Positions 2,576 to 58,549 are shown, numbered from the stretch's first letter. The stretch: DNA of 64,000 bases from Geosiphon pyriformis uo1 (GCA_016748015.1 JAAOMT010000529.1:282194-346193), one strand, 5' to 3'. Notes: generated by a model from the sequence alone, not told the origin. Program-made: numbers and translations.

Positions 2576-3453
2576 TGTTACTTATAAAAAAAAACAGATA
2601 TATAAAAAAATAGTAGACCAATAAGCGAGTAGTAGTTAGCACGTAAGCACATTGCTCAGTGATGTGGAACAATATCAGAAATCATGGCACATTGCTCAGC
2701 AATATGGAGCAATATCAGAAATCATAGCACATCACTCAACAATATGGAGTGATGTCAAGAAAAGACGGCACATTGCTCAGCAATGTGAGCATTGCTTGAA
2801 AAATTATAGCACATTACTCGAGAATGTAAGCAATCTTATAGAACCCAAATTATGTATATATAGTGGTAGCATTAGAAGTAGAAAAGACAGACCTCTCAGT
2901 TTAGATTTAATCTAAGCAACTTTTCATTAAAAAATATCAAATAAATAATTATTCACCATCTCAATTCACCCTCCACTATCAACACTTCATGTTGATAGTA
3001 ATTGATACTTAATCATACTGGAACAATAGCTCTTGATCATGGCTATTGACAGGATATTAACTTGCAATTGCTTTTGTTTATTTTCTTTATTTTTCTTCTA
3101 TTTCTTTTATTATTTCTTTGGTTTTACTAAATTGATTAAGGATTAAGTGCTGAGATACAGATGTTATAGGAACTGGTAAAAGACCCATGAAACAAGGGTA
3201 GAACACTCATAGATTTGAGAATAGCTTATTAGGAGGATTACTGGCTACCACACTGAGAAAAAAATTCAACAGAATTGCAATTTCAGGAGGCTACTAAAAA
3301 CAACTATTCAATCTCTGTCTATTATACAAAGAACTCCACAACAAAACCTTCAGATCAACACAAAACCTTTAGATATCAACATCAGAGTACCAACCACACA
3401 CCAAGTTATGGATTTGTTATTTGACTTGAGACCTCAAATAATCATCTGTAACA
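2576..3453 (+). repeat. 5' LTR of element A
   Basis: Direct repeat of 11847-12646. Contains a U3 array of ~40-bp units (2648-2835), TATATATA (2855-2862), a hairpin (3024-3048) and a T-rich tract. Confidence 0.95.
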
Positions 3454-3455
3454 TT

Positions 3456-3473
3456 TGGTGCTCCTTGTGAGGT
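3456..3473 (+). promoter_or_regulatory. Primer binding site TGGTGCTCC(C/T)TGTGAGG
   Basis: Starts 2 nt after the LTR end and begins with TGG (complement of tRNA CCA). The same motif is at 22991-23007(-), 52714-52730(-) and 41169-41185(+). The tRNA is unresolved (3' end like elongator Met or Ile-UAU). Confidence 0.85.
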
Positions 3474-3513
3474 ATAATCTTACAGAAAACCAGCACCAAC
3501 AAATAAATCAACA

Positions 3514-6500
3514 GTGGCAGAATCAGAAAGTATAGGAGCAAACCATTTAGGATTTGCCAAATTCTTGTTCCAACAGTACAGCCAACAATTAGGATTGAAC
3601 AGTAATTATTTCCCAGCAGAATCAGCATTTAACTTTTATGTCAATAATAAAATCACAGACTGCTTAGGAGGAACAGTTAACATTGAAGCTGCAAGGGAAA
3701 ATTTCTATACAAAATTATTTCAACACACCAGCTTACCAAGAAATTACAGTTTCATACCAATTATTAAAAAAATCAACCAAACCATTAAAAGATATACATA
3801 ACAACAATTTTCTATTACCTATGCAGACAAAGACAAAAGAAGGTTGTAAACACCAGCAGTAACACCAAAACAAATACAACCACCCACTTAGAAGAAAACC
3901 AGAGTTGAATTACCAACAAACCCATCATACCACTATACACCTGAAAGTGCCATTAACATTACTTCAACAGGCGCGTCCACATCACACGCAACACCAATCT
4001 TTGAACAATTCCCATTTCAGAGTAAACCAAGGAAAAAAGATCTTCTAAAACCATATGGCGCATATTTTGAAGAATTTAAGTCACAATTACCAATGCTATC
4101 AGAACTTTGATCTCTGCCACCCCAACCAAATTTCAGAACCATGAGTTTCTGGGAAGTAACAGATTTGAAAGAAGAAAAAGAATCTAAATATTAAGAATTT
4201 ACTTACCAGAACCCAATCCTAAAAAACCTGAACATTAAAACCCCGAACTTTCAGACTCAGCAAAATTTAAATTTAGAAAATCCAGAAATCAGAACTCCGA
4301 ATTTCCAAATGCAGCACAATCAGAATGATCAAAACCCTAACATCAATAATCAACAACACTTACCTCCAGTAATTGTGATTAATCCAGTTCCACCAATTGA
4401 CGAACAGCAACAGCAGCTACTTCAACCACCTCAACAACCATAGCAGTCACTTCAACAGTTGCAACAACAACTACAACAACCAAACGTTAATCCAATGGCC
4501 TACACTCTGATAGCAAAACTTGAGAAATTCACTGGCAAAGAAAACAATGCCCAAATGTGGCTAAACAATATGGAAAAAGCCATTACAGCCAATGGCTGAA
4601 ATGATGCCAGAGCCATGCAGGCCATTCCTTATTTTCTCCAAAATACCACCAATTCATGGTATTAAAGCTTGGTTAACAAACCCTAAGATTTTGCTGCATT
4701 CAAGCTTGCATTTCTACAATACTTTAGCAACAATAATAGTATTAATTGGCTAGTAAACACTTTCATCACTATCAAACAAGGGGAAAATGAAGCAGTCACT
4801 ACTTACCTAAGATGCTTCCATAGAAATCTGCACCAGATTCAAGCAATCCAGGCTGACTATTTTACAGTGCTACAAATTCTAAACCAATTTATTAGAGGTC
4901 TGTACAATAGTATTCTCTAATGCGTACGTTCAATGTATCTAGCAGACCTTCAAGTTGCAGTTACCAACGCCTGAGATTTTGAAGCAGCTGAACTCAAAGC
5001 TAACCATGCCCAAGCCATTAACCTAGTGATGAATGAATCATCTGAATTGGATTCCATATTAAAACAATTCAGTAATTCCATCAATCAGAAATTGGAAGGA
5101 TACTTAGCTGACAATCATGCAATTTATCAACCACCCCAATAATGCAATAATTTAGGAATCACAAATCGCTTACAAAATTAATCACATTCCTCATCATTAT
5201 CCAATCAGCCATGGCTGCAAGAAACACATATCTGCTACTATTATGGTAAACAAGGACATTTAAAACTCAATTGTCAGTTAAGAATAGATAACCAATAATC
5301 AGGAAATCAATATCAAAAACCTGATTGCAGGTTTCCAACTCCAAGTTATCAATCAAGCTCAGCAACATATCAACCGACTAACCTGCCAATGATGCAACAG
5401 CCAATATATCAACCACCTATATATTAACCTCCAGTTTATTAACCACAGCCACCAATAATATATCAACCACCACAGCCACAAATAATTTATCAGACTCCTG
5501 CAGTTCAAACACCACCATCAAACTCAGTTCAAATAACATCAGGAAACCCTAGATCGAGAGTTATTCAAAACTGGAGATTGGTAATGGTTGTTTACCAACC
5601 AATTTTCAGTTTATTTAACCAGCCATTAGGACCACAACAGCAGAGTTTGGGAACTGGATATACTTAAAACCTGAATTCCCAGAACTATTTAAGTCTTCTG
5701 GTTACCCCAAAAGATGTTCAACCCAATAATCCGGAAACCAACCAAAAACAATCACTTACCAACAACATACCTCCAGCCATCATTACCAACAACGAATTAC
5801 TAACAGCAATCTTCCCATTTGAACTTGAGAAAACCACATCAGTCCCATTATTCAGTGGAGCCGCTTTTGATACCAAACCAATCACTGCCATGTACACTAA
5901 CACGAAAGTTGATGGCCATGCCCTCAAACTGATCCTAGATAGTGGATTAGCTGGCAGCATCATCACAAAACAACTCATGGACCAATTAGGTCACTGAGTT
6001 GATCAAGCTGTCAGTGCACAAATCATCACGGCTGATAGAGCAACAAAAACTCTGATCAGCAAAATTAATGACTTCCCTATAGAAGTCAATGGCATTATTA
6101 TACTGATCAAGGTATTAGTCATGAAAGCCACTCAGTACCAAGCACTTATTGGCAATAACTGGCTGTCCAAAACTCATGCGATGCTCAATTGGAACACCCA
6201 AAAGCTTCAGCTTAGTCAAAACGGTCAATACACACATGTACCAGCCATGTGTGGCCACTTCAAGCCCATCATTATGTCATCAGCACCACTTATCGAGTTT
6301 GAAGAAAAAAAAGAGAAACCTATTTGGAAAGTATACCAAGTCTCCTGGACTAACAAAGACCACAATGAGTTGCTGCTAATACTCTCCTGGGACAACAACA
6401 ACAAAGGAAAACAGAAGAAAGAACTTATCTGGAATAACAACCAAGCCTGGGAAACTGATAATGACCAAGACAAATCAACAAACTGGGAATGGAAAGAAAC

Positions 6501-9500
6501 GGACAAGAGAAAGGGAAAGGAGAAGGAAAAAGAAACCACCCTTATCAGTAGCACTTATAGTTCATATGCTTACACTTCATTACAACCATCCAATTATCAT
6601 CGACCAAAATTAGAATGTGTTGATTGTGGCAAGAAGTTGTTGTTAATGGATGCATGCTGTGGCAATGATAAGGAATACTCCATGGCAACAAAATTCTATT
6701 GCTGCCCATGCATTATAGAATGCTTTGGATGACTGAAACAACAAGGAAAATGGGACAACCAACTATGTCTCACATGTGGAACCATTTTGCCTGATAAAAA
6801 AATGTGGAATGACATTCCTGGATGTGGAAGAACATGCGATGAGATGTGTCAATACATAATTCTAATCAATAACTGGGTATGCAAGAGAACACCAATTGAC
6901 AACGCCTGAAAATGAGCATTGCAATAATTAGAAGAATATCCTCACAATGAAGATAAACTCTGGAGAATGGCAAGTGTGAAAGCAGAAGGTGCAACAACCA
7001 GCAAACTACTGGAAATCAAAAACAACCCTCTATCTTTTTTTGAACCTGAATATGTCCAAACTTTCAACATCTTTGGCAATATTGAAGATAATTCAGAGGA
7101 ATTCCACAAACATTACCAGCAATTAACACCCATCAGAGAAGAGCAGGAACAATGCTTGGAAGAAATAAACATCCAATTATGTGACCACTGTTTAATTCCA
7201 TGTGATTTCTAGTATTGCAATGAGTGTGACCTTATTTACAATTCACTATCACACATAATCTACATGATCCCAGAAGAAAACAAACCAATGAGCAACTACA
7301 TATTGGAATTGGAATCAGTTTTCAATCTTAATTCAAACTCTGACAATAATGACGATAAAAACACTGGTTCTAGCTCTGCTTAAAATGGCAACAAAAATAA
7401 CAACAATTTAGACCCTGATTCAAACTCCAAAATATATATTGCCCTCCCTGATCTTACTAAGGAGCAAGAACTGAAATAGTTCAGTGATAATAATGAAGGT
7501 ATTATGCCTGAATGTGTGCATGATACTAATGCAGGATTTGATCTGAAATATCTGGGAAAAGATTTTATCAAATTGGAACCTCATTTGTGTATTTGCATCG
7601 ATCTGAAAATAGCACTGGAAATTCTAACAACAACAATAGTTCAATTAGCATTCAGGAGTAGTTTAGCAAAAAGGGGAATCAACATCAGAGGAGGAATAAT
7701 TAATGCAGAATACATAAGAAATATCATTGTTATGCTACAAAATAACTCAGAAAAAGTATATACCATAGATCTAAATAAAAAGATAGCACAAGCAATATTC
7801 CTACCTCTGATGAAAGTAGCCCAGCTAGTGTTAGTGGGAAACAGAGAAGAATTAGGGATTACAGCTAGAGGAATATAAAGATTCAGATCAATGGGTAGAA
7901 TAGATATATTAGTTAATATGGCAGAGGAAAATATTGTTAACAAAGGAGAAATTATCTCAAACCATCAAACAATTTCCATTCTACCATATGACCAGTATAT
8001 GTTAGTTATAAAAAGAGAAGTAAAGAATCAAGCTCAGTTGTTTGAAGCAGAAACTACCATTTGAAAATCAGAAGAAATTGGACTCACCAATCTCTACATA
8101 TTAGTCAATAGCCCCAAGAATATCAAAATTCCCATCTACAATACAATAGAACGTGTTATTGAAATACCAAAAAGAACCATCATTGGATATTTAACCACCG
8201 AAGTTGAAGACCAATCACCAAACCATATTCCAAATTTTTCACAGTTTTGTGAATATGTGGACATCACATCACAAACCATCTATGAACAAAGTGAATGTTA
8301 TCTGCTCCAACTAGAACAATTGGAACAGATAAACATGGGAAATCTAGACCCACTCCAACAAATGCAATTAAAAACATTACTCAGCAACTTTAATGACATC
8401 TTTGCCAGTGAAAACGAATTTGGCAGAACCAACATCATATAGCATCAAATCAAAACTGGAGATGTAATACCAATTAAACAAAGAGCATACAGAGTATCAC
8501 TAGCTAGCCATGAGATCATTTGTCAAGAAATTAACTGAATGCTTAACAATGGGCTAATTCAGCCATCAATAAGCCTATGGTCATCACCAGTGGTACTAAT
8601 CCAGAAGAAAAATAGGAAAATTTGCTTTTGTGTAGATTACTGGAAACTGAATAAAGTAACCAAAAGAGATAGCTATCCAATACCCAAAATTCAAAAGCTG
8701 TTCAATGCTTTTGAAGGAAATAAATGGTTCTTGACACTAGATTTAGATAGTGATTACTGGCAAGTAGCCATGGATCCAGCCAACAAAAAGAAAACAGCAT
8801 TTACTACAAGAGAAGGAAATTTTGAATTTGAAGTCATGTTATTTGGATTGATGAATGCACCAGCCACATTCCAATGGCTAATGGAAATTGTATACACTGG
8901 ACTACTATGGAAGTCAGTAGTCATATACTTGGATGATACCAATGTGTTCTCAAAAACATTTGATGATCATTTGCATCATCTTCAACAAGTGTTTGAAAAG
9001 TTAAAAAGAGCCGGACTGAAATTAAATGCAACCAAATGTTTCTTTGGAAAAACTGAACTCAAGTTTTTGGGACATGTGGTGAGCAAAGATAGAATTAAAA
9101 CAGATCCAGACAAAATTGAAATTGTTAAAAACTTTTTAGTACCATATAATCTCACAAAATTGAGAGCATTCTTGGGATTTGCCGGATACTACCACCACTT
9201 TATCAAGGACTTTTCCAAAATAGCTCAACCACTACATCAACTCCAAACAAAGAATGTGAAGTACAAATAGACAGAAACTCAACAAAAAGCTTTTAACATA
9301 TTAAGAAGAAAGCTTATTCAAGCTCCAGTATTGATGTATCCAGATTACAACAAACCATTTATTATTACTACCAATGCATCCAGCCAAGCATTGGGAGCAG
9401 TACTATCACAAAAAAGACTGGATAGAAGAGAGCATTCAGTAGCATACACCAGTAAAAGCCTAAGTCCAGCTGAAAAAAACTATGGAATGCCAACACTAGA

Positions 9501-9729
9501 ACACTTAGCTATCTATTGGGCTGTCATCAAGTGGAGAAAATACTTGAGCCAAAAGTTTGATGTATATACTAATCACAAAAAATTAACATCAATTCAGAAA
9601 CAAAAATTTGCAGACAATTGCCATGTTAGATAGAAGATAAAACTTTCACTTTTTAATTATACAGTACATTATAAAAAAGAAAAAAACAACAGAAATGCTG
9701 ATGGATTGTCACAAATGAGACAAATCTAA
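3514..9729 (+). pseudogene. Single-frame Gag-PR-Cys-rich-dUTPase-RT-RNaseH polyprotein of element A (2072 codons, many nonsense transitions)
   Basis: All track fragments (3514, 6121, 6967, 7504, 8257, 8539, 9331) share one frame. Capsid AKLEKFTGKENNAQMWL (~4510); knuckle CYYYGKQGHLKLNC (~5233); protease LILDSG (5929-5946); RT YLDD (8926-8937); RNase H TNASSQALGAVLSQ...NADGLS; stop TAA at 9727-9729. Confidence 0.9.
7480..7900 (+). other. Trimeric-type dUTPase domain inside pol (element A); homologs in C, D, E and F
   Basis: Five dUTPase motifs: AGFDL (I), RSSLA (II), GGIINAEYIRNI (III, from G-I-D-x-x-Y-x-G), KIAQAIF (IV), RGI*RFRSMG (V, from RGxxGFGSxG; F has *GINGFGSSG at ~46138-46167). Confidence 0.9.
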
Positions 9730-9760
9730 AAAAAATTTCAACCCAAAAATATAACAAAAA

Positions 9761-11141
9761 ATGAATATACAAAAATACCAACAACTTCAATATTATATAA
9801 ACACCTAATTGTTCAAGGAGAAATTATCTCAAAAAGAACAAAGAAACATAAAACAACAATCAAAATATTTTATCAATTATCAAAATATACTTTACTAAAA
9901 GAACAGAAAAAATTCAGATTAACCAACTAGAGTAATCACAAAACCAGAAAAAGAGACAATATTATTCAACATACACTCAGACCTAACAGCAGGACATTTT
10001 TATAAAAAAGCAACCATAGAAAGAATCAGAAAGAGATATTATTAGCCATCAATGTATCCAGACATCATTTAATATGTTCAGAATTGTGATGCTTGTCAGA
10101 GAAGAGGTAAAATAAGACCAAGTGAACCATTAAAACCAATCAAAGTGGAACAACCATTCGATCGCATTGGAATTGACTTAATTGGACCATTAACAATCAC
10201 CAGCAGAGGCAACAGATATATTGCAGTAGCCATGGACTATCTCACTAAATAGCCAGAAGCAAAAGCCATTCAAAGAGCAGATGCAGAATTTGTTGCCGAA
10301 TTCATTCACCAAGACTTGATTTGTCAACATGAATGTTCAAAAAAACTACTATCAGATCAAAAAACTCACTTTGTGAACAGAACATTAACAAAATTAAGTC
10401 AGAGATTTGAAATCAAAAGACCATTATTATTATTATACCATTCACAAACAAATGGGTTAGTTGAGAGATTTAACAAAACATTGTGTGAAGCAATTGCCAA
10501 AATCAGTCAGAAAAACCAGGACAAATAGGATTTGTTTATACCATCAGTACTATTTGCTTATCAGACAATGAAGCAAGACACTACACAAGCAACATCATTT
10601 GAATTAGTATATGGTAGAACAGCAACATTACTAGTTGAGATAGAAGTCAATACATATCCAACTAAACCAATAACAGAAGCCAATTTTCAAGAAACATTGT
10701 TGAAAAGAACATATGACTTAATAGAAACACTAGAAAACAGATGATGAAAAGCAGCTAATAACATTCAAAAGTCACAAGAAAGACAAAAAAAAGACATGAT
10801 AACCAACTATCAGATAAACCAGTTGAATTCAAGATTGAAGACAAAGTACTTTTACATTGTACCAAAGTGGAAAAACAATGGAGTGGAAAATTTGATCCCA
10901 AATGAGACAGACCATTTCACATAGAAGAAATTCTTGAAAATGGAGCTTATAAATTAGATAGAACAACAAAATTTTAGCCAAAGCAGTACATGGTGATCGA
11001 CTGAAACCATATCATCAGATAGCATTATTATTCACCAATAACATTCCACAACTAGGAGTACAAAGAATATTAGTTTAACCAGATAAGATTCCATGAGATC
11101 TGAAACCAATCATAGTTATTGAACCAAACACGTCAAATTAA
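9761..11141 (+). pseudogene. Stand-alone integrase ORF of element A (HHCC, DDE core, GPY/F-type tail)
   Basis: ATG at 9761 in a different frame from pol. Translation includes MNIQKYQQLQYYINT, HSDLTAGH, CDACQRRG, IGIDLIGPL, SDQKTHF, QTNGLVERFN, DRPFHIEE and VHGDRLKPY. Confidence 0.9.
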
Positions 11142-11832
11142 ACAACCCAAAAGAGTATATAAAGACACAATACACATGACAAAAGCAACCAAAAAAATAA
11201 AAATACCAGAGCATATTTACACTATAGCTCAACAACTGTTTCAGGCCTTAAGTCAACAACAATTAGACATAGAAATTATTGTTAACAACCAAACAATTTG
11301 CTATTAAAACACCAAAAAAAAGACAAAAAACACTTCATATCAACAGTTACCAAAGAATGATAAAAACTGATCAGATAACATAATAGAAAAAGTAAAGAAC
11401 ACTTTTGGGAAAATACCTATTATGGCACCAACAAAAGAACTTACAAAAGAGAATTAAAAACAATAAACAAAACAACTTCCAATATCATACTGTTACTACC
11501 AGTTAGGTCGGAAGTTGAATATTCAGGAGTTGTATACTGACAAATCCAAGAGAATATTCAACCAAGACATAATACAACAAATTGAAGAATTTATCAGAAA
11601 GAAAACGAATTCAACACTACATGTTAAAACAATGTACCAACTACACAACATATTTCGAAACTATCCAGAAATACTGTTACACTCTGACATGGAAACCATA
11701 ACTATTAACCAATGGGGAAGGATGAACAATACACAAGTAGAAAACGTGAGAAACAGAGTCGAACAAACAATACTTAAAAAAGAAATATTAGAACTAATTC
11801 AAAATAAAAATTTCAACAGAGCTCAATATTAA
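11119..11832 (+). pseudogene. ORF3, unknown ~230-aa hydrophilic protein in the env position (element A)
   Basis: Track ORFs 11119-11307 and 11515-11832 are one frame with C>T/G>A-type stops. It ends RAQY* immediately before the PPT. Homologs in C, D, E and F. Confidence 0.8.
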
Positions 11833-11843
11833 AAAAGAGGAGA
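11831..11843 (+). promoter_or_regulatory. Polypurine tract of element A
   Basis: AAAAAAGAGGAGA then TAA and the 3' LTR start at 11847. Equivalent tracts precede the 3' LTRs of C, D, E and F. Confidence 0.85.
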
Positions 11844-11846
11844 TAA

Positions 11847-12646
11847 TATTACTCATAAAAAGAAAACAGATATATAAAAAAAATAGTAGACCAATAAGTG
11901 AGTAGTAGTTAGTCCGTAAGTATATTGCTCAGCGATGTGGAATGATGTCAAGAAAAGATGGCACATTGCTCAGCAATGTGAGTATTGCTTGAGAAATTAT
12001 AGCACATCACTCAAAAATGTAAGCAATCTCATAAAACCCAAATTATGTATATATAGTGGTAGCATTAAAAGTAGAAAAAACAGACCTTTCAATTTAGATT
12101 TAATCTAAGCAACCTTCTATTAAAAAATATCAAATAAATAATTATTCACCATCTCAATTCACCTTCCACTATTAATACTTCATGTTGATAGTAATTGATA
12201 CTTAACCATACTGAAACAATAGCTCTTGATCACGGCTATTGATGGGATACTAATTTGCAATTGCTTTCATTTATTTTCTTTATTTTTTTTCTATTTCTTT
12301 TATTATTTCTTTGGTTTTACTAAATTGATTAAAAATTAAGTACTGAGATACAAATGTTATAAGGACTAGTAAAAAACCTGTAAAACAAGGATAGAACATT
12401 CATAGATTTGAGGATAGCTTACCAGAAAGATTACTGGCCACTATGCTGAGAAAGAAATTTGATGAAATTGCAATTCCAGGAGGCTACTGAAAACAACTAT
12501 TCAATCTTTGTCTATTATACAAAGAACTTCACAACAAAACCTTCAGATCAACACAAAATCTTTAGATATTAACACCAAAGTACCAACCATGCACCAAGTT
12601 ACAGATTTGTTATTTAACTTAAGACTCTAAATAATCATCTATAACA
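11847..12646 (+). repeat. 3' LTR of element A
   Basis: Colinear with 2576-3453 but lacks two ~40-bp U3 units. Confidence 0.95.
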
Positions 12647-14425
12647 CTGATAAGTAATTGTACAAAGCTTTTATAAAATATAAATATAAACTAGCAATAA
12701 ATTTATTTGTAAAATCAGTTACTATATGTAAGTCAAAATACCAGATTGAGAAAGTTCAAATTAAATACATATATTTTGCCATATTTATATTAATAATGTC
12801 AAATCCAAGCCCAATCTTCTAGTGTGTACAATAAACAGCCCTAAAAATTTTATGAATAAAATAACAAATATTCTTAGATATTATCATCCTACTAATCTTA
12901 ATATATTTTTTATTAATAATAACAGAAAGCATTAAATTCGAATATGAAGTTAAATTGGCTAGCTTATCAGCATACTTATTGCCCAATACACCCAAATGTC
13001 TCTTAACTTTATTTTAAAAGACATTAAGTCTTTTACTTCTAACAGAATTTATAACACAATGTTTTTTTAACCAGCAACTATTATAAAAGTTTGGTAAATT
13101 CATGTTTAATTTCATAACACAAGTATTTAAAGCAGTTTAACTGTCTGAATACATTATAACAGTACTGTAAGTTAGAACATACTTCAAAACCAGAACAATT
13201 GCTTAGAATTCTACTATTGTAAAAGATACCAAACCACCAATTTTAATACCAACATTAATATTTAAATCAAGAAAATACAGTCATACTATATCTTATTTTA
13301 TATATATCCAAGTTTTTTAAAGACTTATCTGTATAAACATTAACAACATCTAAATTAGTATTAGAAAGACACAATTTGATTTCAGAAAAGCCACCAATAT
13401 CAAAAATATTTGAAGGCCAGAAGCTATTAATAAGCAACTGAATATTAAGATAAAATACAGAACTGGCCAAAAAATTATGTGCTATCCCAAATTAAACAGA
13501 AACCAGACCCTTAAGATCAAGTTTTTTTTAATAATAAAAGCTCTTTTAGTCAAAAACCAACTCTTTCTTATTATACAATTATTCAACAAAGGCAATACCA
13601 AATCTTCTAAATAAACAAAAAATATTATAGAACACCAAATCTCTTAAAACAAAAAACATTAGAATGTTACCAAAAAAATGGAATACAAAGAAAAGATTAT
13701 TATTAAGAAACATGTTATAATCCAAAAATATCTTTACTATATTAGCCAAAAGTTGTTAACTAGACTGACTCTTAGCTTCATAAAACAATACAAAGAGTAA
13801 ATAGAAAATTAATCCAAAATTTGCAAATCCAAAGACCTATAATCAAACAGATAACCAAAAATCTTACTAATATTTAAAAAACTCAATACAGAAGCTGCTT
13901 TATTCTTAGCTTGTATTTGCTTAAACAATTTCAAGTTATATAATAATAAATGATAAAGAGTTTTATTAGGAAAATTTTTCAGCAAACCAGCTTTTATTCT
14001 CAAACTCTTCTTAATTAGTGTATCTTACTTATTACACATACTTTTAGAGATAAAATTAAACTAAGTTCTGTAACCAACTATAGACTACAGCACAACTGAA
14101 ACCAAATAAAAAAACTGTTTGTCTAAGATGGCTTTTTTCAAGACCAAATTAACAAAAAATCTGATGTTAGAGTAAGTTTTTACTAAACTAGGTCTTAATA
14201 AACTCTCAGAAAACAAAAAAATACCAAGATATCTGTAAAACTCCCTTTTCTAAATAATAGATATTGGCAGACCACTTATTATTAATGAGACATTTCTTAT
14301 TTTCTGATTAATAAAAATGGCTACCATCTTTTCATTGTTTATTGAAATGTTATTTATTTTAAAAAAATTACTTGCAATATTTAAAATATGTTAAGTAGCA
14401 ACTTGACTACTTCTTATCTAAATTG

Positions 14426-17400
14426 AATGGTGTTGGTATTATCTAAAAAGTTAAGTATCTGAAGATTTTAATTAAGTTTTTTGTATAATGAACAGATATT
14501 TAAGTGTTGTTTTTCCTGTAGTTTCTTGGAATTGCAATTTCATTGAATTTTTTCCTTAATATAGTAGTTGACAATCTTCCTGATAAGCTATCCTTAATAA
14601 TGAATGTTCTATCCTTGTTCTTGGGTTTTTTACCAGTATTATATCTTGATGTCAATACTTTCGCATATTAATTAATTAGTAAACAAACAAACAGAAAAAA
14701 AAATAAATAAATAAATAAAAAAAATAATAAAAAGAGAAAATAAAATAAGCCAAGACAAGAAAAAGTTAGTATCTTATTAATAGCTGTGATCAAGAGTTAT
14801 TGGTCCAATATAATTAAGTATTAGATACTATTAATATAAGGTATTAATAGTAAGAAGATGAATTTAGATAGTGAATATTTATTTTATTAATATTAATGAT
14901 TATTTAACTAAAGATTCTTGGATTTTATTTTAACTAAGATGTTTTCATTGCTAGATTTGTTTTTTCTGCTTTTAATGCTCTCGTTATATATACATAATTT
15001 GGGTTTTATGAGATCACTCATATTTTTAAGCAATGTGCTATTATTTCTTGAGTAATGTTTACATTGTTAAGCAATATTTTATAATTCCTAACAATGTTTT
15101 ACATTGCTAAGCAATATGCTTATGTGTTAACTACTAGTTTTCTATTGGTCTATTTGTTTTTTCTACTATTTTTTTGTATGCTTTTTTTATAAGTAACATT
15201 ATTTTCTCTTTTTAATATTGAGCTTTATCGAAATCTTCATTTTGAATTAGTTCTATAACTTCTTTTTTTAGTACCATTTGTTCAATTCTGTTTCTTATAT
15301 CTTTGATTTACAAATTGTTCATTCTTTTCTATTGGTTAATGGTGATTGTTTCCATGTCTAGATGTAACAATATTTCTGGGTAGTTTTGAAAGATTATGTA
15401 TAGTTAATAGATTGTTTTAATGTGTAGTGTCAGATTTGTTTTCTTTCTAATAGTGTTTTCAATGTTTTGTATTATTTCTTGATTGAATATTCTTTTAGAT
15501 TTATTAAAATATAACTTCTAAATATCCAACTTTTGTCTTAATTAATAATAGTAGTATAGTATTGGAAGTTGTTCTATCTATTGTTTCCAATTTTCTTTTG
15601 AGAGTTCTTCTGTTGGAGTTATGATGGGTATTTTTCCAAAAGTGTTCTTTACTTTTTTAATTATCTTATTCAACTAGTGTTTTGTTTGGTTCTGAAGTTG
15701 TTAATATAGTGTATTCTTTGTTTTTCTTTTTTGTTTGGTGTTTTAATAGCAGATTGTTTGATGGTTGATAACAATTTTTATGTTTAATTGTTGTTAATTT
15801 AAGGCCTAAAATAATTGTTAAGCTAAAGTGTAGATATGATCTGGTATTTCTATTTTCTTTGTTGCTTTTATTACATATATTATGTTTTTATATACTCTTT
15901 TGGTTGATCAACTTGATGTGTTTGAATCAATGATTATAATTGGTTCCAGATTTTATGGAATTTTATCTGGTTGAACTAGTATTTGTTGTACTTTCAGTTA
16001 TGAAATATTACTGATAAATAATGCTGCTGTATTGTAATATGGTTTTAGTTAATTTCCATGTGCTGCTTTAGCTAAGATTTTGTTGTCTCATCTTAATTTA
16101 TAAGCTCTATTTCCTAAAAATTTTTCAATGTGAAATGGTTTATTCTATTTAAGGTCAAATTTTCTATTTTATTGTTTTTTTACTTTGGTATAATGTAAGA
16201 GTACTTTGTCTTCAATCTTGAATTCAACTAGTTTATTTGATAATTGGTTATTATGTTATTCTTTTTGTTTTTCTTGTGATTTTTGAATGTTATTAGCTGT
16301 TCTCTATCTTTTGTTTTCCAACATTTTTATTAGTTTATATGTTTTTCTTAACAATGTTTTTTGTAAGTTGGCTTCTGTTATTGGTTCTGTTGGATATGTA
16401 TTAATGTTTATCTCCATTAGTAATATTGCTGTTCTACTATAAACAAGTTTAAATGGTGTTGCTTGTATAGTATCTTGCTTCATTGTCTGATAAGCAAATA
16501 ATACTAATAATATAAACAAATCTTATTTGTCCTGGTTTTTTTGACTGATTTTGGCAATTGCTTTACACAATATTCTGTTGAACCTTTCAATTAAACCATT
16601 TGTTTATGGATGATATAATGATGATAATGGTCTCTTAATTCCAAATCTTTGGCTTAATTTTACTAATGTTCTGTTTATAAAGTGAGTTTCTTGATCTAAT
16701 AACAATTTTTTTGGACATCCATATTAACAAATCAAATTTTGATAAATGAATTTGGCTATGAATTTTGTATCTGCTCTTTGAATTGCTTTTACCTCTGGCC
16801 ATTTTATGAGATAATTTATGGCAACTGCTATATAATGATTGTTTCTGCTAGTTATTGTTAATAGTCCTACTAAGTCAATTCCAATTCTATTAAATAGTTG
16901 TCCCATTTTAATTGGTCTTAATGGTTTGTTAGGTCATGTTCCTCCTCTTTTCTGACAAGCATCACAATTTTGAACATATTAGATAATATCTGGATATATT
17001 GATGACTAATAATATTTTTTTCTGGTTCTTTCCATAGTTGCTTTTTTATGAAAATGTTTTGTGGTTGAATCTAAGTGCATGTTGTATAATATTGTTTCTT
17101 TTTCTGGTTCTGTAATTACTCTAAGTGGTTAATCTGGATCTTTTCTGTTTTTTCAATATAATATATTTTAATAAATGATAAAATATTTGAATTGTTGTTT
17201 GATGTTGTTTTGTTCCTCTTGAGATAATTTTTTCTGAAACTGTTGAATATTAATATAATATTGGAGTTGTTGATATTTTTGTGTGTTCATCTTTTGTTAT
17301 ATTTTTGGATTGAAAATATTTTTTAGATTTGTCTTATTTGCAACAAACCATCAGCATTTCCATTTTTTTTTCCCTTTTTATAATGTACTATATATTTGAA

Positions 17401-20400
17401 TAGTGAAAGTTTTATTTTCTATCTAACATGACAGTTATCTCTAAATTTTTGCTTCTGAATTGATGTCAATTCTTTGTGATCAGTATATATGTTGAATTTC
17501 TGGCTTAAATATTCTTTCTATTTTATAACTGCCTAATAGATAGCTAAGTGTTCTAGTGCTGGTGTTTCATAGTTTTTTTTGGTTGGATTCAAACTTTGGC
17601 TGATATATATAACTGGATATTCTTGTTTATTCAGTCTTCTCTGAGATAGTATTGCTCTCAATGCTTGATTAGATGTATTGGTAGTAATAATGAATGACTT
17701 ATTATAATCTGGATAAATTAGTACTAGAGTTTGAATAAGTTTTTTTTTTAATATATTGAAAGCTTGCTAAATTTCAATTCATTTATATTTCATATTTTTG
17801 GCTTGAAGTTGGTAGAATAGTTAAACCAGTTTGGAGAAGTTCTGGATAAAGTGGCAATAATATCTAGCAAATCTTAAAAATGCTCTTAATTTGGTAAGAT
17901 TTATTGGTACTGAAAAGTTTTTGACAATTTCAATTTTGTCTGAATCTGTTTTGATATCATTTTTGCTTACAACATATCCCAAAAATTTCAGTTTTGTTTT
18001 GCCAAAGAAGTATTTGTTTGCATTCAGTTTCAATTCAGTTTTTTTTAGTCTTTCAAACACTTGCTGTAGATAATGAAGATGTTCATCAAATGTTTTTGAG
18101 AATACATTGGTATCATTCAAGTAGACAATTACTGATTTCTATAGTAGTCCAGTATAAACAATTTCTATTAGCTGTTGGAAGATGACTGGCATATTGGTTA
18201 AACCAAATAACATAACTTTAAATTCAAAATTTTTTTCTTTGGTAGTGAATACAGTTTTTTATTTATTAGCTGAATTTATGATTATTTGCCAGTAACCACT
18301 ATTTAGATCCAATGTTGAGAACCATTTTTTTTCTTCAAATACATTAAATAATTTCTGAATCCATGGTGTTGAGTAGCTGTCTTCACAAATTATACTGTTG
18401 AGTTTTCTATAATCTACACAAATGCAAATTTTCCTATTCTTTTTCCAGACTAGTACCACTAATAATAATCATGAACTCATTAATAGTTGAATTAATCTGT
18501 TGTCTAACATTTGGTTGATTTCTTGTCAGATGATTTCATGGCTTGCTGGTGGTACTTTGTATGTTCTTTGTTTAATTGACATTGTATTTCCAGTTTTAAT
18601 CTGGTACTGGATAATGTTAGTTCTGCTAAATTCATTTTCATTGGCAAAGATGTCAATGAAATTGTTAAACAACATCTTGAGTTATATTCATTGAAGTGAA
18701 TTTAAGTTTTCCAAATTTATTTGTTCCAATTGTTCTGATTAGAGCAAATAACATTCTTTTTGTCTGTATATTGTTTGTGATGTAATATCCACATATCCAC
18801 AAAGTTGTAAAAAATCCGAAATAGTGCTTAGTAGTTGGTTCTCAACTTCAGTGCTTAAATATCTGATGGTAGTTTTGCTTGGTATTTTTATGGTGTCTTC
18901 AGTTGTGTTGTGGATGGGAATCTTAATATTTTTGTCATTTTTAGCCAATATGTAAAGATTGGTAATAGCAATCTCTCTTGATTCACAAATTGTAACTTTT
19001 GCTTCAAAAATCTGGAGCTGATCTCTTACTTTTCTTTCTATAATTACTAAATACTGGTTATATAATAAGATGAAAATTGATTGACAGATGAAAATAATTT
19101 CTTCTTTGTTAATAACTTTTTTTTCTGCCATATTAATTAGTATGTCTATTCTATCTGTGAATCTAAATTCACTTATTTCTCTTGCTGTTATCCTTAATTC
19201 TTCTTTTTTTCTTACTAATATTAACTAAGCTATTTTAACCAAAGACAGGAATATTGTCTGTGCTATCTTTTCATTTGGCTCAATAATGTAAGTCTTTTCT
19301 GAGTTGTTTTGTAGTATTGCAATAATATTTCTTACATATTCTGCATTAATTATTTCTCCTCTTATATTAATCTCCTTTTTCACTAAACTATTCCTAGATG
19401 CTAATTAAACTATTTTTGTTACTAGAATTTTCAGTGCTACTTTCAGATCAATACAGATGCATAAATGTGATTCCAATTTGATCACATTTTTTCTTGGATA
19501 TCTTAAATTAAATCCTGTATTAGTATTATGTGCTTGTTTTGGCATAATATCTTCATTATTATTATTAAACCATTTAAGTTTTTGCTCTTTGAACAAATCA
19601 GGGAATGTAATATATTGTTTTGGGTTTAAATCAAAGTCTGACTAGTTGTTGTTATTGGTGTTGCCATTTTGGATTGAGCTAGAACTATTGTTTTTATTAT
19701 TATCATTAGAGTTTGAATTCGATTCTAATTTCAATACACAATTGCTAATTGGTTCTTCTTTTTCTTCTGAGGTTGTGTAAATCATGTGTAGTGATGGATT
19801 GTAAATAAGATTACACTTATTACAATATTGAAAATCACATGAAATCAAACAATAGTCACATAGTCAGGTGTTTAGTTGTTCTAAATATTGCTTTTGCTCT
19901 TTTTTGGTAAGTGCTAAGTCTTAATAATGTTTGTAGAATTGTTTTGAATTCATAGTATCAAAGACAATATTAGAGTTTAGAATCCAATTGAGTTTTATGA
20001 GTTCTGGTGAGTTATTTTTAATTTCTCTTATTTTTTCAATTAACACACCTTCAATTTTGGTAAAAGCTATTTGCCAGATTTTGTTGTCATTGTGTAAACA
20101 ACCATCTAGATATTTTATAGCTCTTCTCCAGACAGTGTCTATGGACATGTTTTTTCTTATCCAATTACTAATTAGAATTGTGTATTGATACAATTTGTTA
20201 CATGTTTTTCTACAACCAGAAATGTTGTTCCATATTTTTTTACCTAAAAAAGTTTCCTTACATATAAGACATGGTTTGTTGTTATTTTTCTTGTTTTTTT
20301 GGTTATTTAAAGTATTCAAAGACATATAGGCAGCAGTAGTATTTGGTGGCCATTGGCCATTTTTTATTATTACTACAACATACATCTATTGTAGACAATT

Positions 20401-23400
20401 TTTTGCCACAATTAACACAGATCAGTTTGGGTCTATGATAGTAAGTTTGAGATATGACAATATATGGTGTGTATATAGATATGGTAACTTATATAAGATC
20501 TTCTTCTTTTTTTTTCTCTTTTTTTTTTTTCTCCCAAGTCAATATTGATAATAATTTGTTGTGTTCTTTTTTGTCAGTCTATAAGACTTGATAGGCTTTT
20601 TAGGTAAGTTTTTTTTCTTTTTCCTTGAACTCAATTAATAGTGCTGGTATATTGGTAGTCTTGAAGTAATTGCAGGTTGCTAGTACTTGAATATGTTGAC
20701 TATTGACTGTTAACTGAAGTTCTTGAGTGTTTTAGTCAAGGATAACATTGGTTTTAGACAGCCAGTCATTACCAATAAGGGCTTGGTATTGAGTGGCTTC
20801 TATTACTAATATCTTAATCATAATAATAATACTGTTGACTTTAAATAGAAAATCATTAATCTTGCCAATAAGAGTTTTCATTGCTCTATTGGCTGTAATA
20901 ATTCAGACATTGGCAGTATGATCAACTTGATAACCTAATTGGTTCATAAGTTGTTAGATAATAATGCTGTCTGCTGAATCAGTTTAATAGACTGACTATT
21001 AACTTTAGCATTAGTGTATATTGCAGTAATTAGTTTCATGTGAAAAGTAACTTCACTAAATAAAAGAGTTTCTGATAGTTTTTTAAGTTCAAAGAAAAAG
21101 ATGGCAGCCAATAATTCATCCTTAGTAATAGTAGCTAGAAATATGTTGTTAGAAAGTAGTTAGAGTTGATTGAATTCTTGTTTGCTAAATTCAGCATCTT
21201 CTGCAATAACCAAAAGACTTAAGTAGTTCTGGGAATTTGGGTTTTGGTTGTACCCAGTTCCTGAACTCCATTGATGAGATCCTGATGGCTGACTTAATAA
21301 ACTGGAGATTGGTTGATATATTACTATTGCCAATCTCCAGTTTTGATATATATGTGTATTTCTCAGTCTTTGGTTTCTAAATAACATCTGAGCTATGTTT
21401 TATGGTGGTGTTAGAATAGATTGGAGTTGATAAAATACTGGTGGCTGCAGTTGATAAATAATTGGGACTGGAGTTTGATAGATTGAAAGTATATATAGTG
21501 GTTGTAGCATTATTTGCAAGTAATAGAGTTAATATTAATCTTAATTTGGTAAATAATTCAGAGTTTGGAACTGGCAATCAGAGTTTTGATATTGATTTTC
21601 CGATTGTTGATGAGTTAATCTTAATCAACAGTCTATTTTTATGTGTTTTTGTTTACCACAGTAATGGCAAATGCATGTCTTTTGCTGTCACTACTAATTT
21701 GATAAAGATTAACATAACTAATTTTGGAGTCAATTAGAACTTTCTTGATTATTATGTTATTGTAAAGGTTGATAAATGATCTGGTTGTTAACTAAGTATT
21801 CTTTCAATTTCTGGTTGATTAAATTACTGAATTGTTTCAATTTGAAATTCAATTCAGATGATCTGTTCATTACTAGATTTACAGCTTGGACATAATTGGC
21901 TTTGAGTTTAGCTGATTCAAAGTCTTTAGCATGTGTGACTGTGGCTTGAAAATTGCCTAGATGTAATAGACATATGTATTGTAAGATACTACTACACAGA
22001 TCATGAATAAACTGGTTCAAAATCTGCAGTTCTGTAAAGTAGGCTGCATTAATTACTTGAATTTGGCACAAAGTTCAGTAGAAGCATTTCAAGTAAATAA
22101 TAACTGCTTCAGTATCTTCTTGTTTAATAATAGTGAAAGTATTGGCTAAGTAGTTGATGCTGTTATTATTACTAAAATATCTTAGGAACTTAAGTTTAAA
22201 CATGTTGAAATCTTGGGATTTATTTACCAAGCTTTGATATTACAAATTAACAGTATCTTGAAGAAAGTATAAGATAACTTGCAGTACTCTGGCATCATTC
22301 CATTTATTGGCTTCAATGGCTTTTTCTACATCATTTAGTCATGTTTGCATATTATCCTCTTTACCAGTAATTTTTCTAATTTGGTAATTGATACATAGGC
22401 TATTAGTGCTACAATCAGTTGTTGTGGTGGGTTTGGTTGTTGTTGAGGTTGTGGCAGCAGCTGAAGTTGTGTGACAATTGGTATAATTGGGGGGGGAGAG
22501 GGATTAATAACAATTTCTGGAGGTAAGTTTGGTTGATTAATAATGGCAGAGTTTGGATTGTTCTGATTTTGCTGGATTAGAACAGTCAGAGTTTAAATTT
22601 CTGGGTTTTCTGAGATTGGATTTTGATAATTAAATTCTTAATTGTTGTTTTTCTCTTCCTCTAATTCCATTAATTCCCAAAGGCTAATAGTTCTGAAATC
22701 AGGTTGATGTGACAGGAATTGAAATCCTGATGGTGTAGATAATTAATTTGTTGTAGAAATTTTCTCTTGTGAATTTAGTATTTACTGATTTTCCTAAGTA
22801 TAATAAAATTCTTTTATTAATGTAGAAATTAAAGACTAATTCTGCTAATAAGTGATTACTGGTTAGTTCTAAGCATTGACAATAGTATTGAAATAAAAAT
22901 TTAGTGAATCCTAAATGATTTGTCTTTATTTTTTCTGATTTTGCCACTTTTGAATAGTTGTTACTAGTACTAGTTTTCTGTAAAATTATACCTTACAGAG
23001 AGCACCAAATGTTATTGGTGATTATTTGGGAATATAGAAACAAATAACAAACTTATAACTTGGTGCTTAATAGTTTAATAGTGTTGGTATTATTTGAAGG
23101 GTTTAATATCTGAAGATTTTGGTTGAGTTTTTTGTATAATAAACAGAAATTTAAGTGTTGTTTTTCTCATAGCTTTCCAAAATTGCAATTCCATCAAATT
23201 TTTTTCTCAGTGTGGTGACCAACAATTCTCTTAGTAAGTTATTTTTAATAATGAGTATTCTACTTTTGTTTCTGGGTCTTTTATCAGTATTATATCCTGA
23301 TATCAGTACTTCCATATATTAATCAATCAGTAAACAAACAAACAAAAAAAAATAAAAAATAAAAATAAAAAAAATAATGAAAAAAAAAAACAAAATAAGC

Positions 23401-23889
23401 CAAGACAAGAAAAAATTAGTATCCTATCAATAGCTGTAATTAAGAGCTATTGGTCCAATGTGATTAAATATTAGATACTATTAATATCTTATGTTAATAG
23501 TGAGGAGATAGATTTAGATAGTGAATATTTATTTTATTAATATTGATGATTATTTAACTAAAGATTCTTGGGTTTTATTCTAACTAAGATGTCTTTACTG
23601 CTAGATCTGTCTTTTTTGCTTCTAATACTCTTACTATATATACATAATTTGGGTTTTATGAAATTGTTCACATTTTCAAGTAATGTGTTATCATTTCTCG
23701 AACAATGCTTACATTGCTGAGCAATATGCCATAATTCCTGACAATGTTCCATATTGTTAAACAATATGCCATAATTCTTAACAATGCTTTACATTGCTAA
23801 GCAATATGCTCACATGTTAACTACTAGTTTTCTATTGGTTTATCTGTTTTTTTCTACTATTTTTTTGTATGCTTTTTTTATAAATAATA
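14426..23889 (-). mobile_element. Ty3/Gypsy copy C (family 1), 3' LTR tip deleted, inserted in gag of D
   Basis: 5' LTR 23010-23889; truncated 3' LTR 14426-15198; PBS 22991-23007; gag GTG 22947; pol stop 17323-17325; integrase ATG 17290; ORF3 ~15930-15212. There is an internal gag deletion near 22740 and the protease LDSG is lost near 20980. Confidence 0.92.
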
Positions 23890-25578
23890 CTGTTCCAAAG
23901 TAAACAGAAGAAAACAAAATTATTAGAAACATACAGCAATTATTTTGAGGAATTTAAATTGAAATCTTTAACACTATAAGAAATCCAATTACTGCCATTA
24001 CAACCAGATTTTGAAGCTGGTAGTTCTTGAGAAATAACTGACTTCAAGAAAGAAGAAAACAATGATCAGAGAATTAATAATCAATCTCAGAAAACCCAGA
24101 AATACAAACTCTGATTATTCTAACTCTGCAAAATCAGAACAATCTAAATACTGCTCCTATTGTTCTCCAAAATTTATCTTTAGTAATCATAATCAATTTA
24201 CCACCAAATGCACCAATTACCAAACATCAATAATAACAGTCACAACTATCATTCTAACAGCAACTACAATAAGAACTACAATTACAACAACTACTAATAG
24301 CATTGATCGCATATGCACCAATTGTCAAACTTGAGAAATTTATCAGTAAGGAGGACAATATGCAAGTATAACTCAATAACATAGAAAAAACCATCAAGGC
24401 CAATAGATAGAATAATGCCAAGCATTATAAACAATTTCATATTTTCTTCAGAATACCACTAATTCCTAATATCAAAGTCTGATTCAGAAATCCCAAGATT
24501 TTAACACATTTAAAGTTGAATTTTTAAGATATTTTAGTAATAATAATAGCATCAATTAATTAGCCAATACTTTCACAACTATTAAACAAGAAGATACTAA
24601 AGCTGTTACTACTTACTTAGGATGCTTTTACAGAAATCTGTGCCAAATTCAAGTCATTGATGCCAATTATTTTACAGTAGCCCAAATCTTGAATCAGTTT
24701 ATTTGTGAAATACACAGCAGCATCCTGTAATACATATGTCTATTACATTCAGTCATACTTCAAACTACAGTTAATTATGCCAAAGACTTTGAATTAGCTG
24801 AACTAGAAACTAATTATGCTTAAGCTGTAAACTTAGTAATAAACAGATCATTTGATCTGGATTCCAAATTGAAACAATTCAATGACTCAATTAACTAAAA
24901 GCTTGAAAGATACTTAGCTAACAACTAGGCAATTTATTAACCTCCACAATGGTGAAATAATTAAAAAAACTCCAATTATTTTTAAAATCAGTCATGTCTA
25001 TTATTATTGATGAATCAATTATAACAACCAAAGACATGTATTTGTTACAACTATAGAAGACAAAACTATCTTAGAATAGATTGCTGTATCAAATTTGATA
25101 ACCAATAATCAGAAAATCAATATAAAAACCCCAATTACCAGTTCTAAACTCCGAATTACAACTCAAATCAAGATTAATATTAGCCCTATTACTCACCTAT
25201 AATGCAATAAATATACTCACTTTTAATATATTAAACTCTGGTACTTGTAATATATCAACTACAGTCACAAATTATCTATTAACCACAACAACTTCAAACA
25301 CCACCACAAAACTCAGTTCCAATAACACACAGAAATCAAAGACTAAGAATCACACACATCCAACAAAATTGAAAATTGGTAATAGTAATATATTAACTAA
25401 TCTTTAGTTCATTGAACCAGTCATTAGAACCCTGCCAGCAAAGTTCAAAAACTGAATATAGCCAAAACCCAAATTTCCAGAACTATTTAAGTTTCTTGGT
25501 GACCTCAGAAAACATCTTATTCTACAATCAAAAAACCAACCAAATGCCACTTACTAATAATATACCTTCAGCAATTAT

Positions 25579-26417
25579 TGTTACAAGTGATTATTTAAGA
25601 TCTCAAAGCAAATAACAAACCTGTAATTTGGTGCTTAATTAATATAAGTGGTTGGTACTATCTAAAAATATTGTTGATCTGAAGGTTTTGTAGTAGAGTT
25701 TTTTGTATAATGGACAGAGATTCAGTGGTGATTGTAGTAGTTTTCTGGAATTGCAATTTTTGCCCAATTTCTTTCTCAGCTTGGTGGCCAGATTTATTTT
25801 GGCAGTTGTGCCCTTTTGGTAAGTTATCTGTTAATATATATATAATTCTACTCTTATTTTTGGGTCTTTTATCAGGCTATCTTTGACATCAATAATTCAG
25901 CACTTAATTCTCAATTAATTAGCAAACACAACAAAATAAAGAAAATAAAAAAGATAAAGAAAAGATAAAAAAAATAAGCCAAGACAATTTGCATATTAGT
26001 ATCCTATCAATAGCTATAATCAAGAGCTATTGTTCTAGTGTGGTTAAGTATCAATTACCATTAACATGAAATGTTGATAGTGAGGAATAGATTAAGATAG
26101 TGAATAATTATTTATTGATATTTGTGAATGAAAACTGTGACATCTGTCTTTTCTGCTTTTAATGCTATCACTATATATACTTAATTTATGTTCTATGAGA
26201 TTGCTTACACTTCTGAACAATGTGCTATAATTTCTTGAACAATGTTTATATTGCTAAACAATGTGCCTTAATTTTTTAATATTACTCCACATTGTTGAGT
26301 AATGTGTCATAATTTCTAACATTGTTCCATATTGCTGAGCAATGTGCTCATGTGTTAACTACTACTCTCCTTATTGGTCTACTGTTTTTCTATATCTGTT
26401 TTTTTTTATGAGTAACA
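25579..26417 (-). mobile_element. Solo LTR (family 1, 40-bp-array U3) inserted in D upstream of the protease
   Basis: TGTTAC...GTAACA termini. Perfect TSD TTAT (25575-25578/26418-26421). The D frame NNIPSAI|ITNNELL rejoins across it. Confidence 0.92.
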
Positions 26418-38297: not shown

Positions 38298-38596
38298 NNN
38301 NNNNNNNNNNNNNNNNNNNNNNNNNNNNNNNNNNNNNNNNNNNNNNNNNNNNNNNNNNNNNNNNNNNNNNNNNNNNNNNNNNNNNNNNNNNNNNNNNNNN
38401 NNNNNNNNNNNNNNNNNNNNNNNNNNNNNNNNNNNNNNNNNNNNNNNNNNNNNNNNNNNNNNNNNNNNNNNNNNNNNNNNNNNNNNNNNNNNNNNNNNNN
38501 NNNNNNNNNNNNNNNNNNNNNNNNNNNNNNNNNNNNNNNNNNNNNNNNNNNNNNNNNNNNNNNNNNNNNNNNNNNNNNNNNNNNNNNNNNNNNNNN
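38298..38596. other. Assembly gap (299 N) inside the Cys-rich region of element E
   Basis: Run of N. The matching segment in copy C is about 600 bp, so the gap is probably under-sized. Confidence 0.95.
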
Positions 38597-40704: not shown

Positions 40705-40755
<51 letters not shown>

Positions 40756-57890: not shown

Positions 57891-57899
57891 TAATAATTG

Positions 57900-58280: not shown

Positions 58281-58549
58281 ATTGGGTAAAGAAAGGATAA
58301 AGGCAAAATGTGAATAGGTTATTATTTAAAGAAAGTTTTTTTAAAATCTTTGTTTTATGGCAATTTTAAAAAGTAAATTTTCAAAGACTAAGTTCTTATT
58401 TATATTGTTTCTCTATGTTCATATAGTTTAACAAATCAATTTAATTGAAACATTATTTGCTACAAATAATACTAGAATTGATTTATTTTGGCCTAGCAAT
58501 AGAAAACCGATTTAGGCATAAAAAATAGCTGAAAATCTTATGAGGGGAT

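Follow-up and report, generated by a model that had tools for sequence, protein, structure and literature searches.

The 64,000-nucleotide stretch of Geosiphon pyriformis uo1 DNA analysed here (GCA_016748015.1, JAAOMT010000529.1:282194-346193; the window) contains five internal copies (A-E) of a Ty3/Gypsy-type long terminal repeat (LTR) retrotransposon whose integrase is encoded outside Pol. We regard them as decayed members of a lineage, likely of Glomeromycotina fungi, in which the Gag-protease-reverse transcriptase (RT)-RNase H polyprotein ends at a stop codon and a separate integrase is likely made by restarting ribosomes, a reading that we prefer with modest confidence. The split layout is real and is no product of decay.

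Integrase encoded apart from Pol

Copy A (2576..12646; this and all its features on the + strand) is delimited by LTRs and a 4-bp target duplication. Its first open reading frame (ORF1, 3514..9729) runs in a single frame from GTG 3514 to TAA 9729 and, as the earlier note had claimed, needs no frameshift, though it contains 31 internal stops. ORF1 encodes, in this order, an N-terminal domain, a capsid (Retrotrans_gag, 4624..4902, Pfam E 1.3e-6), a CCHC knuckle (5233..5274) whose second Cys has decayed to Tyr in copy A and is Cys in protein P0037, a Q/P/Y-rich tract, an aspartic protease with an LDSG motif (5899..6168, Pfam), a Cys-rich insert (6613..7240), a dUTPase (7501..7854), a spacer (7894..8310), the RT core with a YLDD motif (8605..9078, Pfam RVT_1) and RNase H (9271..9729, Pfam RT_RNaseH), which ends NADGLSQMRQI-stop. 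An AUG-free spacer of 31 nt (9730..9760) separates the RNase H stop from the ATG of ORF2 (9761..11141), a stand-alone integrase with a YPYY-like N-terminus (the likeness was judged by eye), HHCC, DDE and GPF. The H2C2 zinc finger, rve and SH3_Tf2-1 were all matched by Pfam in a frame separate from that of ORF1, and in copy A itself the integrase ORF has lost 1 nt near 10790 and another near 10955. ORF3 (11176..11832, about 218 aa) and a polypurine tract (11831..11843) follow.

The stop after RNase H stands at the same place in all five window copies (TAA in A-D, TGA in E). The spacers between this stop and the integrase measure 31, 32, 30, 29 and 16 nt and represent all three frames, and the integrase start codon is ATG in four of the five copies, that of C having become ATA by G>A decay. 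A protein search with the integrase frame, limited to 186-594 aa, returned 718 proteins; among the best 120 of these, the homologues are 255-451 aa long, Met is the first residue in 118, and the median distance to the zinc-finger His is 71 residues. DNA of relatives was fetched because a size-limited protein search could not return fused forms, and the best 80 of 573 metagenome matches, chosen by integrase similarity (loci labelled L001 and so on), were taken. RNase H was found upstream of integrase in 47 of the 80 loci and fused to it in none of the 47. The separate integrase ORF that the earlier note had placed behind the stop is thus confirmed, and the canonical arrangement, with integrase as the C-terminal part of Pol, was seen neither in the five window copies nor in the 47 loci.

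The gap between the two genes could be measured in 46 cases (the start in L018 is damaged) and extends from -20 to +1026 nt, with 12, 18 and 16 gaps in the three frames. Ten junctions overlap or abut, 6 gaps measure 3-50 nt, another 19 measure 51-100 nt and the remaining 11 are longer; the overlapping junctions include ATGA (L078) and TAATG (L049). Weighing against the generality of the split are the inability of the 186-594-aa search to show fused forms, the recovery, in a search at 1384-3950 aa, of fused relatives with identities of up to about 46%, and the near-duplicate loci in the sample (L013/L070, L053/L056, L024/L054 and L030/L035).

The window copies are heavily mutated, as the 31 stops within ORF1 of copy A and the 299 transitions vs 8 transversions in the LTR pairs of A, D and E attest, and the split could be ascribed to decay, with a normal Pol broken through C>T/G>A changes and small indels, or to annotation noise. 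The lack of fusion in 47 mostly intact relatives, gap lengths in all frames and the conserved Met and start context make this explanation extremely improbable. Hardly more probable is that an independent DNA transposon of the Ginger type inserted behind RT-RNase H and supplied the integrase gene. Traits of Ginger1, as given in parts of PMC2836005, are indeed present: the integrase stands alone, measures ~420 aa and bears YPYY-like, HHCC, DDE and GPF motifs, the termini are TGTNR and the duplications are of 4 bp; but no inverted repeats or duplications were seen at the ends of the integrase ORF when the junctions were read, the subclades match between the RT and integrase trees, and a polypurine tract and an LTR follow ORF3. 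Several of the related contigs likewise continue through ORF3, polypurine tract, LTR, primer site and gag, which identifies the relatives as LTR elements, not DNA transposons.

In five loci (L022:4354-5163, L035, L047, L052 and L066) RNase H is followed by an in-frame tail of 220-310 aa and then a stop; the tails of L022, L035 and L052 (270-310 aa) gave no significant Pfam match.

Possible routes to the integrase protein

We propose that the full-length RNA would be polycistronic and that some of the ribosomes stopping after RNase H would scan on through the short spacer, which lacks AUG, and initiate anew at the AUG of integrase. ORF3 could be made by the same restart or from a shorter RNA, and the free integrase would reach the particle or the cDNA untied to Gag, with binding to RT-RNase H or to the RNA as the most likely means. 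Integrase normally enters the particle of retroviruses and LTR retrotransposons within Pol. Foamy viruses express their enzyme gene apart from Gag and package it by another route, the whole of Pol, integrase included, coming from a spliced mRNA; they free all of Pol, whereas the window lineage cuts loose integrase only. Where integrase is free, as in this large clade with open frames, the dose and the packaging of the enzyme must be secured in some other manner.

Judged from the junction sequences, termination-reinitiation has about an even chance of being the route. It is favoured by the AUG-poor short spacers, by the general lack of AG near the start and by the occasional ATGA/TAATG overlaps: the 25 positive gaps of up to 100 nt hold 3 ATGs vs 22.6 expected, and 17 of them have no AG in their last 25 nt. 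The integrase ATG behaves like a true start, with a purine at -3 in 41 and G at +4 in 37 of 44 loci. Stop-restart at AUGA/UAAUG is documented in fungal victoriviruses (sections of PMC6631646), and in victoriviruses and hypoviruses such an overlap drives a separate downstream enzyme, as the same overlaps in L078 and L049 might. These, however, are RNA viruses whose restart needs an upstream pseudoknot, and most junctions of the present lineage, the window included, have a spacer of 16-100 nt. Fusion of the integrase by frameshifting or readthrough was excluded, because the gaps fall in variable frames and stops lie upstream of the ATG.

Several observations speak against reinitiation. Only 10 of the 46 junctions overlap or abut; the 11 gaps longer than 100 nt hold ATGs at chance rates, for which simple restart does not account; AUG-poor spacers would also fit the 5' untranslated region of a shorter mRNA; and AG directly before the start codon in copies B, C and D, as well as a branch-like CTAAT..CAG just upstream of the integrase start in copy E, would fit a splice acceptor. 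The long gaps with their ordinary ATG content and the acceptor-like sequences would suit the same split with integrase (and ORF3) translated from a subgenomic RNA that arises by splicing or from an internal promoter, as for retroviral env, and the ORF3s of LTR retrotransposons typically come from spliced messages (PMC5408684, in part). Splicing would not require the start to overlap or abut the stop, as it does in 10 of the 46 loci, and 17 of the 25 short gaps have no AG in their last 25 nt; we consider a subgenomic RNA rather unlikely.

A subset of the relatives carries, directly before the integrase ATG, a 42-nt RNA structure made of a 4-bp helix, an 11-nt bulge, a 6-bp helix and an 8-nt loop (for example L022:5191-5232 and L062:53-95, with 18 further loci). 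It lies 4-33 nt upstream of the ATG in 18 pattern-matched loci, and a covariance model built from 16 loci matches 20 of the 80 at E below 1e-6; 98% of the cells pair and 6 of the 10 pairs change on both sides, with slid controls at 24-59%. The window lacks it, and 10 loci scanned gave no Rfam match. The bulge UGNAA and the loop NGYGA fit what we take to be the T-loop consensus, and our guess from these sequences is that the structure may be a tRNA-elbow-binding double T-loop motif; the architecture of an interdigitated double T-loop that stacks on the tRNA elbow is described in parts of PMC4810234. This covarying two-helix structure could point to internal initiation on the full-length RNA by means of a structure before the AUG, with signals that differ by subclade. 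Such initiation appears improbable, since neither the window nor 58-60 of the 80 loci have the structure, which could equally serve restart, packaging or RNA processing and owes part of its covariation to related sequences.

Further putative translation signals were noticed in the relatives. ACGGA occurs within 80 nt before the integrase ATG in 11 of 44 regions vs 1.8 expected (AACGG in 12), often repeatedly (L002-L012, L017, L053), and may mark a second translation signal, with the reservation that these loci are relatives of one another. An in-frame TGA lies between protease and RT in 10 loci (L021:2882-2887, L023, L024, L031, L033, L054, L055, L057, L063 and L075), with CTA next in 9 of the 10; TGA-CTA is presumably a readthrough context, and the TGA likely separates Gag-protease from RT-RNase H by readthrough. 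TTTAAAC immediately precedes the gag stop in L003:1960-1975 and L004:330-342, where pol lies in the -1 frame, and is likely a frameshift site. As for the window family, the GTG of ORF1 is found in the context AAAGTGG/ACAGTGG without an upstream ATG in copies A, B and D (it is GTA in E), from which we infer that ORF1 starts at GUG. The ATG of ORF3 in copy A (11176) aligns with GTA in B and with GTG in C and D, hence ORF3 may also have begun at GUG.

Lineage, dUTPase and ORF3

Trees were computed from thinned rows (66 of 115 for RT-RNase H, 69 for integrase and 49 for the concatenation) with fused-Pol proteins as comparison. IQ-TREE recovered the split clade with support values (Shimodaira-Hasegawa-like approximate likelihood-ratio test/ultrafast bootstrap) of 75/76 on RT-RNase H, 97.5/86 on integrase and 96/79 on the concatenation, and placed the window integrases as sister to L016 (94.6/99). 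FastTree put P0120, a long-branched fused protein, inside the split group; IQ-TREE did not. The sister group is unstable: on RT it includes a Rhizopus element, on the concatenation sequences with long branches. The bootstrap of the clade is moderate (76-86), and the choice of loci by integrase favours an integrase clade; both facts detract from its standing. With 0 of 47 loci fused and the clade present in three trees, a distinct Ty3/Gypsy lineage, as the earlier note had proposed, is nevertheless supported, and it is much wider than this genome. The named hosts are all Glomeromycotina (Rhizophagus irregularis, R. clarus, Entrophospora, Glomus cerebriforme, Gigaspora margarita and Geosiphon), and most members of the clade have no recorded host. 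An R. irregularis protein shares 98.6% identity with the integrase of L062; with close natural copies, R. irregularis allows testing.

Assignment to Ty3/Gypsy rests on TG..CA LTR ends, a 4-bp duplication (within the 4-6 bp range), a primer-binding site, a polypurine tract, the order protease-RT-RNase H-integrase, an RVT_1-type RT and a GPY/F integrase. The primer-binding site of copy A (3456..3472, +) is of the tRNA type (TGG-type) and starts TGGTGCTCC..., as it does in L005 and L035. All 120 RT-RNase H matches listed are Gypsy-like polyproteins or Geosiphon fragments, and the RT-RNase H tree puts the clade among Gypsy-like sequences, in a comparison set without a non-Gypsy outgroup or clade-labelled references. 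Viral contigs gave 3 weak partial matches.

Gmr1-like Gypsy elements carry integrase upstream of RT; as it lies downstream here, placement among them was rejected. Membership in the fungal chromoviruses, including the dUTPase-bearing PosPlaTy3, was likewise rejected, as chromodomain PF00385 matched none of the 120 integrases listed nor the window pieces scanned (a scan that ends before the last 55 codons). Troyka, with CG..CG ends and a 3-bp duplication (parts of PMC12440569), differs from the TG..CA ends and 4-bp duplication found here. With canonical Ty3/Gypsy elements the window lineage shares LTRs, a tRNA-type primer site, a polypurine tract, the gag-protease-RT-RNase H-integrase order and an HHCC/DDE/GPF integrase; it differs in that integrase is outside Pol, whereas the canonical elements, as parts of PMC12440569 describe them, have it inside (gag-pol or gag, pol). 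In the literature covered, from which supplements, most subscription papers, Repbase and GyDB fell outside, no Gypsy clade with a separate integrase gene was found described.

The window integrase resembles those of Ginger1 and of the YPYY Gypsy elements (Athila/Tat, Cer1, Gypsy-1-I_RO and DGLT-A), which have ~400 aa, a YPYY-like start, GPY/F, TGTNR ends and a 4-bp duplication alike (passages of PMC2836005). Ginger1 itself has inverted repeats, no RT, a C-terminal OTU/Ulp1 and CCGG/CCGT targets, while the window element is a full LTR retrotransposon; the direct LTRs and RT-RNase H exclude Ginger1 membership. A free integrase would offer a concrete route from Gypsy integrases to Ginger-type transposases. 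Many genes annotated as 'DDE-type integrase/transposase' in mycorrhizal fungi may be parts of LTR retrotransposons, and the same perhaps holds for some rve-based fungal Ginger counts (PMC5751038, in part). The most far-reaching claim would join all of this: an undescribed clade of LTR retrotransposons in mycorrhizal fungi with integrase freed from Pol, using stop-restart, UGA-CUA readthrough between protease and RT, -1 frameshifting, GUG starts and a new RNA fold with two T-loop-like pentamers that docks tRNA or ribosome at the integrase start, representing the missing Gypsy-Ginger1 intermediate and carrying an ORF3 of new fold; in this combined form we hold it to be doubtful.

The trait of the lineage is the stand-alone integrase, ORF3 is a common accessory gene and the dUTPase is a local add-on. 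The dUTPase domain (trimeric type) is genuine, though the copies are decayed: it scores 48.6 bits vs a cut-off of 22 in Pfam (E 8.5e-13 in copy A), matches 30 PDB dUTPase sequences (best E 3e-7) and shows, across the window copies, what we take to be the five usual dUTPase motifs. It was found only in the window copies and in three G. pyriformis proteins (56-66% identity), the only ones among the matches listed to cover the region, and in none of the 80 loci, many of which do not extend over it. A dUTPase between protease and RT is already known from fungal (PMC2864245), rotifer (PMC5408684) and planarian (PMC6431247) elements, so the earlier idea of it as a mark of the lineage is not upheld. 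Postia PosPlaTy3-5, rotifer Juno/Vesta/TelKA and planarian Burro have it in the position seen in the window copies; in these Gypsy elements, as far as the portions of the sources cited go, integrase is a pol domain, whereas here it is separate and without a chromodomain match. We propose that the dUTPase would be a late capture by the Geosiphon-type family and would limit uracil in cDNA.

The spacer preceding RT, which the earlier note had called dUTPase-like, could not be confirmed as such (hhalign against dUTPase: probability 0.08%, E 0.62; no PDB match), and its single-sequence model, with a predicted local distance difference test (pLDDT) score of 29, is unusable. Neither the Cys-rich insert nor the N-terminal domain has a significant Pfam match; both were seen only in window copies and Geosiphon proteins, no wide search having been made.

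An ORF follows integrase in 36 loci, and 31 of these ORFs are linked by BLASTP. A profile of the 31 sequences matched 626 clusters at 50% identity, and the family includes proteins of R. irregularis, Glomus cerebriforme and Gigaspora margarita. Neither the relatives nor ORF3 of copy A gave a significant Pfam match, and no membrane segment was found in copy A or in 33 ORF3 sequences (highest 19-residue hydropathy 1.32). The AlphaFold model of the relatives' ORF3 is all-helical (148 aa, pLDDT 92.8); Foldseek searches of PDB and BFVD gave no match for it with an E of 0.001 or lower, which is no proof of a new fold. A likeness to importin 13 (VIA-align Z 5.0, root-mean-square deviation 3.8, 83 aligned) was set aside as not meaningful, Atlas matches stayed below 0.9, and a likeness to DUF1016_N was dropped (1 of 28 members, E 0.11). 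Small all-helical proteins without a membrane segment are not Env, which removes the element from the Env-bearing, errantivirus-like class; the ORF3 of the earlier note thus stands as an unfamiliar, non-Env protein, and its term 'retrovirus-like' was overstated.

Window ORF3 is closest to that of L016 (E 4e-11), the locus that is also the integrase sister. It likely belongs to the all-helical family of the lineage: hhalign pairs the same YxLG and downstream motifs of window ORF3 and family. Counting against membership, the probability of that comparison is 46% (E 2e-4), and the ORF3 hidden Markov model gave E 0.025-0.4 at copies D and E and nothing at A. In L023 the polypurine tract directly adjoins integrase, without ORF3, so ORF3 is not needed for the split. 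We propose that ORF3 would act as a soluble accessory protein instead of an envelope and that some members of the clade can do without it. Of the accessory genes that the earlier note had ascribed to the lineage, the non-Env ORF3 is common, though absent from L023, while the dUTPase does not define it. Rotifer elements also carry non-Env ORF3s; rotifer ORF3s are of Env, GDSL, DEDDy or membrane types in the account consulted (PMC5408684), and the ORF3 of this lineage matches none of them.

The ORF3 slot holds a NUDIX hydrolase in L059:1945-2889 and a helix-turn-helix protein in L003:6546-6944, and L075:752-1414 is an Mrr-type nuclease ORF upstream of gag.

Copies, decay and neighbouring sequences in the window

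The five copies, which as previously noted share one design and fall into two LTR families, are 76-80% alike within A-D, and E is 66% alike to A. The 5' LTR of copy A (2576..3453, +; TGTTA...TAACA) includes 40-bp tandem repeats (2647-2791) and is about 89-90% identical to the 3' LTR (11847..12646, +). Copy B (14420..23889, - strand; left boundary approximate) belongs to the LTR family of A and has lost the end of its 3' LTR, and with it any target duplication. Copy C (23893..53849, +) lacks its 5' end, has a solo LTR in its pol (25579-26417) and copy D in its 3' LTR. Copy D (32809..53547, -) has both LTRs, contains an assembly gap of 299 N (38298-38596) and is split in gag by copy E (40152..51186, +), which represents the second LTR family with the same three-ORF layout. 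The halves of D (33.6-40.1 kb and 51.2-53.5 kb) meet at residues 512/513 of copy A ORF1 and share the ACAG duplication, which shows that D has both ends. One 5'-truncated copy, as reported before, does exist (C, starting at ~23.9 kb); the copy at 33.6-40.1 kb is split by E, not truncated, and the lettering may differ between the two descriptions.

All four insertions that could be measured have target duplications of 4 bp rather than 5 (A CTGG/CTGA, D ACAG/ACAG, E GTGG/GCGG, solo LTR TTAT/TTAT), and the LTR termini are TGTTA..TAACA or its G>A/C>T-decayed versions; both agree with the earlier description. The LTR hairpin described there (3024..3048, + in copy A; 8-bp stem, loop palindrome TGATCA) has the same stem in A3, B5, D5 and C3. 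In a strict scan of 10 LTR copies five were positive, with TGATCA or TAATTA in the loop, and none was of family E, so it is not common to both families. We infer that the hairpin is a candidate RNA dimerisation signal.

C>T change affects 93% of CpG sites, 50% of CpC sites and 29% of both CpA and CpT sites; the frequency of CpG is 0.18 times that expected. As the LTR differences are almost all transitions, LTR-based dating was rejected, and the copies are younger than the LTR distance of 11-15% suggests. A repeat-directed mutation process is a possible cause of C>T in all dinucleotide contexts; repeat-induced point mutation was undetected in Gigaspora, according to part of PMC8647823. Copy A matched 18,811 contigs of one DNA run, possibly the run from which the window itself derives; this is not a copy count but fits a highly repeated family; LTR elements make up 41.2% of the G. 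pyriformis genome (PMC11952901, in part).

Elsewhere in the window, ~1 kb of unrelated sequence (44405-45434) breaks the Cys-rich insert of copy E, and 54001-61000 is very AT-rich (10-25% GC). A kinase-like host gene lies at 61112-62590 (+), of a type that we take to be expanded in mycorrhizal fungi, and 62941-63846 (-) is a Tc1/mariner transposase ORF without stops (DDE_3, HTH_Tnp_Tc3_2).

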